From NCBI RefSeq assembly GCF_003334335.1, contig NZ_QOWQ01000171.1: 565 nucleotides of DNA; one strand, written 5' to 3'. The notes below the pieces were generated by a model. It saw only the letters and a program-made list of their open reading frames with translations. It did not search any database and was not told where the DNA came from. Each line of letters starts with the position of its first letter. The stretch's first letter is position 1. This DNA is from Escherichia coli. GTDB lineage: Bacteria; Pseudomonadota; Gammaproteobacteria; Enterobacterales; Enterobacteriaceae. The position numbers and the translations under genes were made by a program. This document shows positions 1 to 565 of this stretch, in pieces.

Positions 1-552
1 CGCCTGGTTAAACGTCAGCCCTGCCGCCTGCCCGGCTCTGGAGAGCGTCAGCATACGATCGGCAGTCAGTCCGGCCTGATTGCCGGAAAGGACCAGCGTT
101 TTATTAAATTCTGAAAGCGTGGAATCCCCCTGGTACCAGGCGTACGCCAGCGCACCTGTCGCCACCGCCAGCGAGGTGACCCCGACCATCGGCAGGCTGA
201 TCGCACCGGCAAGCCCCCTGAACATGGGGATCATCCCGCCGAAGGAGTCCTTCACCTGACCGCCCTGTTGCAGCAGGATGAGCCAGGGATTCTGACCACC
301 GGCAAGCTGCGTGGCGATATCCGTAAACTGTGCGGGCAGGGTACGCATGGCTGCTTTATACTGCCCGACGGAAATCCCGGCTTTTTGTGCGGCCAGCGCC
401 TGACGGTTCAGACTCTGCTCAACGGCACCGGCGGTTTTTCTGGCGTCGGTATCCAGTCCTGAAAAATGACGCCTTACCCGGCTCATCTGCTCATCGAAAC
501 GGGCCGCATCCAGACTCAGGTCAATAACAAGATCACCAACCGGCTGGGACAT
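1..552 (-). CDS. H: Tail tape measure protein, lambda gpH-like; N-terminal 184 codons only, 3' end lies beyond position 1 of the window
   Basis: Seen in sequence: the minus-strand frame is open from ATG at 552..550 to the window edge (184 codons, no stop, checked codon by codon). Recognition: the translation closely matches my recollection of the lambda gpH N-terminus (MAEPVGDLVVDLSLDAARFDEQMARVRRHFSG..., ...AGGQSPWLILLQQGGQVKDSFGGMIPMFRGLAGAI...), with scattered, mostly conservative substitutions. The start is preceded by a strong Shine-Dalgarno. Identity level is not computed; it needs an alignment. Confidence 0.92.
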   Translation of the reverse strand, partial: MSQPVGDLVIDLSLDAARFDEQMSRVRRHFSGLDTDARKTAGAVEQSLNRQALAAQKAGISVGQYKAAMRTLPAQFTDIATQLAGGQNPWLILLQQGGQVKDSFGGMIPMFRGLAGAISLPMVGVTSLAVATGALAYAWYQGDSTLSEFNKTLVLSGNQAGLTADRMLTLSRAGQAAGLTFNQA

Positions 553-560
553 ATCTCACA

Positions 561-565
561 CCTCC
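561..565 (-). promoter_or_regulatory. Shine-Dalgarno ribosome-binding site for the tape measure gene (GGAGG, 8-nt spacer to ATG)
   Basis: Seen in sequence: the minus strand reads GGAGGTGTGAGATATG, with GGAGG 8 nt upstream of the ATG at 552..550. Inference: this is a canonical enterobacterial SD with appropriate spacing. Confidence 0.6.

Follow-up and report, generated by a model that had tools for sequence, protein, structure and literature searches.

The ruler role of the lambda tape measure protein gpH is said to go back to Katsura and Hendrix in 1984 and to Katsura in 1987, and the account of its G/GT partners reportedly comes from Xu, Hendrix and Duda in 2004 and 2014. Lambda gpH acts as a ruler, is cleaved to gpH* and forms a hexameric periplasmic gpH* channel, with its C terminus bound to gpI (PMC12617516). 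Residues 116-140 of the protein have tentatively been proposed as a membrane-spanning element, an assignment that is favoured yet unproven (PMC12617516). During injection, gpH was the one phage protein robustly labelled beside ManZ, which the SNIPE nuclease exploits, and dependence on ManYZ has been linked to the gpH substitution A304V and to the divergent residues 300-400 in PhiR68.2 (bioRxiv 10.1101/2025.11.03.685801).

Here, we analysed a 565-nucleotide stretch of DNA from an Escherichia coli assembly (GCF_003334335.1, contig NZ_QOWQ01000171.1), hereafter the window. It almost certainly contains the start of gene H from a lambda-type siphovirus or prophage, with the 3′ end of gene T lying ahead of it and overlapping it. 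With lambda gpH (NP_040595; chain H of PDB 8IYK, 8IYL and 8K35), it shares a conserved sequence block, a hydrophobic segment and a position after G and T. The gene family, its pairing with chaperones and the ruler mechanism are textbook knowledge, and the allele is a common one. This agrees with the first-pass annotation of the window, which had described the family as well known and of interest solely as a marker of a prophage region; both the gene family and the allele group had already been recorded.

Results

Reading frame and translation start of H

On the minus strand, a frame runs from position 552 to position 1 through 184 uninterrupted sense codons, ATG first, and its translation starts MSQPVGDLVIDLSLDAARFDEQ. 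They open the tail length tape measure gene H (1-552, minus strand), which continues past position 1. The single stop of this frame across the whole window is a TGA at 556-558, and since it lies two codons upstream of the ATG, the H start codon is fixed at 550-552 (minus strand). The start position is identical in lambda, in phage 21 and in the Stx1a and Stx2a alleles. Eight nucleotides before the ATG, a GGAGG Shine-Dalgarno motif can be read from the sequence as the ribosome-binding site of H (561-565, minus strand). This motif is kept in lambda and in all related alleles that we aligned, and in the records of phage 21 and Lambda imm434 a ribosome-binding site is annotated beneath the match to the window. 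The window covers 21% of the H gene; the completeness of this copy beyond position 1 lies outside its scope.

Homology to lambda gpH

The first-pass annotation had called the minus-strand translation a near-copy of the gpH N terminus, marking the start of a lambdoid tape measure gene, and had proposed a protein comparison with lambda gene H as a check. Run by BLASTP with the translation of NC_001416 10542-13103 as the gpH reference, this comparison aligned query residues 1-183 with gpH 1-183, residue 1 to residue 1 and without gaps, at 164/183 identical (90%) and 177/183 positive positions (E 5e-118). The placement at the start of the gene is thus borne out. The label of near-copy is overstated: the DNA shows 84.2% nucleotide identity to lambda over 552 nt (87 base differences) and belongs to a different H allele group. 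Third codon positions account for 61 of the 87 differences, and the codons that differ comprise 51 synonymous and 20 non-synonymous cases, the latter changing 20 of the 184 residues. This predominance of synonymous change is the mark that purifying selection leaves on a gene translated in the H frame.

Profile searches likewise put the match well past anything that chance would give. Residues 54-184 (1-393, minus strand) match the Pfam domain TMP_2 (PF06791) with an independent E-value of 1.2e-48, over positions 2-135 of the 208 in the model, the domain being truncated by the end of the window. It lies in the N-terminal third of the protein, the placement by which a gpH-type tape measure protein is recognized. 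Three PHROG families, 4498, 3827 and 24, all described as “tail length tape measure protein”, were matched with E-values from 1e-121 (4498) to 9e-81. The only close sequence in the PDB was lambda gpH itself (8IYK, 8IYL, 8K35), the match to 8iyk_H having an E-value of 2.6e-103. No NCBIfam model matched the 184-residue fragment alone. In full-length H, the only NCBIfam model that matches is TIGR01541; because it covers the C-terminal part of the protein, the blank result for the fragment says nothing against membership in the family.

The overlapping end of chaperone gene T

Positions 533-565 on the minus strand comprise the final 10 codons of T (GGVRYVPAGW) and the TGA that ends it; in the records identical to the window, the annotated T coding sequence ends 33 nt into the match. 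T is the frameshifted C-terminal part of gpGT, the tail assembly chaperone. Its frame extends upstream without a stop for about 150 codons in PhiR5_1 (locus L001), in JE86-ST05 (locus L002) and in a further locus, L009, and the JE86-ST05 T frame scores 193 bits against TIGR01715 (cutoff 77). The first-pass annotation had expected the chaperone genes just beyond position 565. V, G and T do lie upstream in two records identical to the window, so the expectation was right in its direction, but the final 10 codons and the stop of T are already inside the window, from 565 to 533.

T and H overlap here by 20 nt (533-552). The Stx1a, Stx2a, JE86 and PhiR5_1 group shares the 20-nt length, lambda and phage 21 have a shorter overlap of 8 nt, and HK225 has a longer one of 23 nt; across the alleles aligned, the overlapping arrangement is thus seen to be conserved and its length alone to vary. 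Compared with lambda, T gains four residues here, the lambda T stop having been removed by the changes A2S and E3Q in H. A T stop 20 nt inside H is the usual compact layout of the late operon, in which the two genes are probably translationally coupled.

Anatomy of the first 184 residues

Conservation is uneven along the fragment. The E. coli alleles compared agree well over residues 1-30, and between these residues and the TMP_2 domain lies the most variable stretch, residues 31-50 (403-462, minus strand). Here, the changes from lambda gpH are densest, with 7 of the 19 replacements in the BLASTP alignment, and amino-acid identity across alleles is lowest (0.46-0.55). A core follows at about residues 51-110, still recognizable at the DNA level in the tape measure genes of Serratia, Klebsiella and Pseudomonas phages, and within it the distant allele group retains an amino-acid identity of 0.6-0.9 per 10-codon bin. 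The TMP_2 proteins of N15/HK225-type, Serratia, Klebsiella and Pseudomonas siphoviruses have this same core and are likewise encoded after a frameshifted chaperone pair. Their identity is 43-69%, and the homology begins or ends inside the window, at mosaic junctions.

The block NPWLILLQQGGQVKDSFGGMIPMFRGLAGAI, quoted by the first-pass annotation, is present at residues 88-118 (199-291, minus strand) and starts within this best-conserved core; lambda has S for N at its first residue and is otherwise identical. Farther on, at about residues 113-140 (133-216, minus strand), comes the hydrophobic segment GLAGAISLPMVGVTSLAVATGALAYAWY, with a Kyte-Doolittle 19-residue mean of up to 1.7. It corresponds to lambda gpH residues 116-140 and is conserved here. 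As the sole strongly hydrophobic segment in the window, it is, by analogy with lambda, the leading candidate for insertion into the membrane.

The alleles of the Stx1a and Stx2d prophages align with the window up to about position 236 (residue 106 of H), after which their sequence is unrelated. On the evidence of these alignments, the switch at residue 106 is a mosaic junction placed just past the conserved core.

Genomic context and relatives

By Megablast, Escherichia phage PhiR5_1 (PV340545) matches the window at 100% identity, as do eight complete E. coli chromosomes, and the records with an identical window annotate the gene as a tape measure protein. Many Stx2a-converting prophages, LC727843 being one example, are 95.6% identical to the window. 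The H alleles of the Stx2a prophages, PhiR5_1 and JE86-ST05 show 95.6-100% nucleotide identity to the window over its whole length, with the same T/H overlap and a T protein ending in VPAGW. By these sequence features, the H of the window falls into an allele group distinct from that of lambda, and its nearest relatives below the 100% matches are the alleles of the Stx2a prophages. One of the records matching at 80% identity or more has an organism name starting “Campylobacter” and may be mislabelled or contaminated.

Gene order was inspected in two of the 100%-identical records, PhiR5_1 and JE86-ST05, with lambda as the comparison. The annotated flanks of both copies read Nu1-A-W-B-C-D-E-FI-FII-Z-U-V-G-T-H-M-L-K-I-J-lom, which is the lambda order; lysis genes precede Nu1, C/Nu3 lies at C, and tail fibre genes follow lom. 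The flanking genes predicted by the first-pass annotation, V-G-T upstream and M-L-K-I-J downstream, were accordingly recovered in both. In JE86-ST05, G matches TIGR01674 above the curated cut-off, and the -1 slippery heptamer known from lambda, G GGA AAG, occupies 14569-14575 of L002, in the zero frame of G and 17 nt ahead of its stop codon; G GGA AAG occurs across the locus no more often than expected by chance, and the heptamer is informative by its position alone.

Tape measure proteins also occur in tailocins and gene transfer agents, and the window itself contains no head genes, two points that would suit a non-phage tail-like device with a borrowed lambda-type tape measure. We give such an origin a next to negligible probability, since the PhiR5_1 and JE86-ST05 loci both have the lambda arrangement of terminase, portal, capsid, lysis and tail-fibre genes. 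In addition, the nearest matches listed were all phages or E. coli chromosomes, annotated with a phage tail tape measure protein and tail assembly protein T.

The copy in JE86-ST05 allows the gene to be followed beyond the window. A tape measure gene for a tail of lambda length has about 850 codons, and H of JE86-ST05 has 857 (L002, 15014-17587), its first 552 nt being identical to the window; its product of 857 residues compares with 853 in lambda gpH. The first-pass annotation had placed about 670 further codons past position 1, and the JE86-ST05 gene has 673 (857 - 184). As in lambda gpH, the full-length protein has the C-terminal TIGR01541 domain (tape_meas_lam_C; 360 bits, cutoff 105), at residues 476-817, outside the window. 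Between the two proteins, only 36 of the 100 positions at residues 301-400 are identical, against about 80-92% in the flanking 50-residue bins. This divergent mosaic cassette of JE86-ST05 H coincides with the region that the SNIPE preprint ties to ManYZ dependence.

We also weighed the possibility that the window copy is a decayed or truncated H of a defective prophage, homologous to the tape measure gene yet no working ruler. Of 5426 complete E. coli genomes, 3710 contain sequence matching the window, at a median of 2 and a maximum of 7 places per genome, and many E. coli prophages are defective. Moreover, a 1-nt deletion farther downstream splits H in PhiR5_1, whose sequence over the window is identical. 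Nevertheless, the H frame is intact within the window, complete with start codon and ribosome-binding site, and the JE86-ST05 copy, also identical over the window, is full-length and sits in a prophage whose lysis, head and tail modules are complete. PhiR5_1 itself was submitted as a complete phage genome, and its record gives E. coli C as the host. On balance, we consider a decayed copy unlikely and retain the interpretation of the window as the start of a lambda-type tape measure gene.

Several further observations concern these relatives. The PhiR5_1 deletion lies at H nucleotide 2234 (about 14247), in a G-rich run, relative to JE86-ST05, and the record annotates two “tape-measure protein H” coding sequences, at 12014-14347 and 14347-14586. 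The deletion could be a sequencing error, or it could be a real split that detaches the gpI-binding C terminus. Downstream of the window, the two H genes differ at 69 positions, this frameshifting deletion included, and PhiR49_1 is likewise listed with “H (x2)”. In the JE86-ST05 prophage (L002, 24481-30565), a YadA-like adhesin gene lies downstream of the tail fibre genes, and PhiR5_1 has a “putative adhesin/invasin” at the equivalent place; the JE86-ST05 prophage ends beside a tRNA-Ser gene and a frameshifted hyaA. Among the places that match the window, 31 sit on plasmids, for which phage-plasmids or assembly artefacts are possible explanations.

Search for additional elements within H

Two features of the window might hint at a second functional element inside H, either a plus-strand gene or an RNA or other embedded element at about residues 100-120. 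The first is a set of five mechanically called open reading frames of 30-65 residues, four of them on the plus strand (including those of 59-65 residues) and one in another minus-strand frame. The second is a run of about 60 nt at residues 100-120 without any difference from lambda, whereas differences elsewhere recur every few codons. Against a second gene stands the third-position pattern of the differences, which agrees with the minus-strand H frame, and the plus-strand frames were discarded as unsupported on the same codon-position evidence.

A codon-level comparison with 10 alleles, ranging from lambda to Pseudomonas phage Medea1, was negative for hidden synonymous constraint at about residues 100-120. 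In the distant alleles (HK225, Phi06_2987, Scapp, and the Klebsiella and Pseudomonas phages), codon identity at positions encoding the same residue was 0.40-0.63 there, as elsewhere. Because these alleles vary at synonymous sites in this interval as they do outside it, the run is a recombination patch among close alleles, and synonymous constraint was dropped as its explanation in favour of patchy recombination. A second element inside H thus seems highly improbable.

A permissive Rfam scan for embedded RNA returned one chance match, MIR1432, whose 20 bits fall short of the gathering score of 90, and was set aside. Scans for promoter-like and terminator-like sites in the window were negative, and no meaningful repeats emerged. 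At 120-149, within the coding sequence, lies an imperfect 18-nt palindrome centred on GGTACC and 78% complementary, which looks like a product of chance.

Discussion

If the protein encoded here works as it does in lambda, gpG and gpGT would keep gpH soluble and extended, and gpH would assemble on the tail-tip initiator complex, where gpV would polymerise around it as far as its end. Because gpV polymerisation stops at the end of gpH, the length of gpH would set the length of the tail. The protein would be cleaved near its C terminus to yield gpH*, which in turn would be ejected ahead of the DNA and form at least a major part of the channel across the envelope. Since the extreme C terminus of gpH binds gpI in the tip, residues 1-184 would make up the tip-distal end of the ruler, including the candidate membrane element.

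The amino-acid changes that separate the window from lambda, concentrated at residues 31-50 and flanking the core and the hydrophobic segment, could in principle reflect diversifying selection on an injected protein. Host defences that detect tape measure proteins at the inner membrane, such as SNIPE-type nucleases, might supply the pressure, as might a change in the inner-membrane entry factor. We regard this as very unlikely, given that the pairwise changes are mostly synonymous and that the ManYZ region, at about residues 300-400, lies outside the window. If it were true, the allele group would differ from lambda in its use of entry factors or in its sensitivity to defence.

The window allele is found in thousands of sequenced E. 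coli genomes. In the source genome, the orientation of the module places the head genes beyond position 565 and the tip and fibre genes beyond position 1. The value of the window is solely that of a landmark, one that points to a lambda-type tail module, and hence to a prophage or phage, in the genome from which it came.
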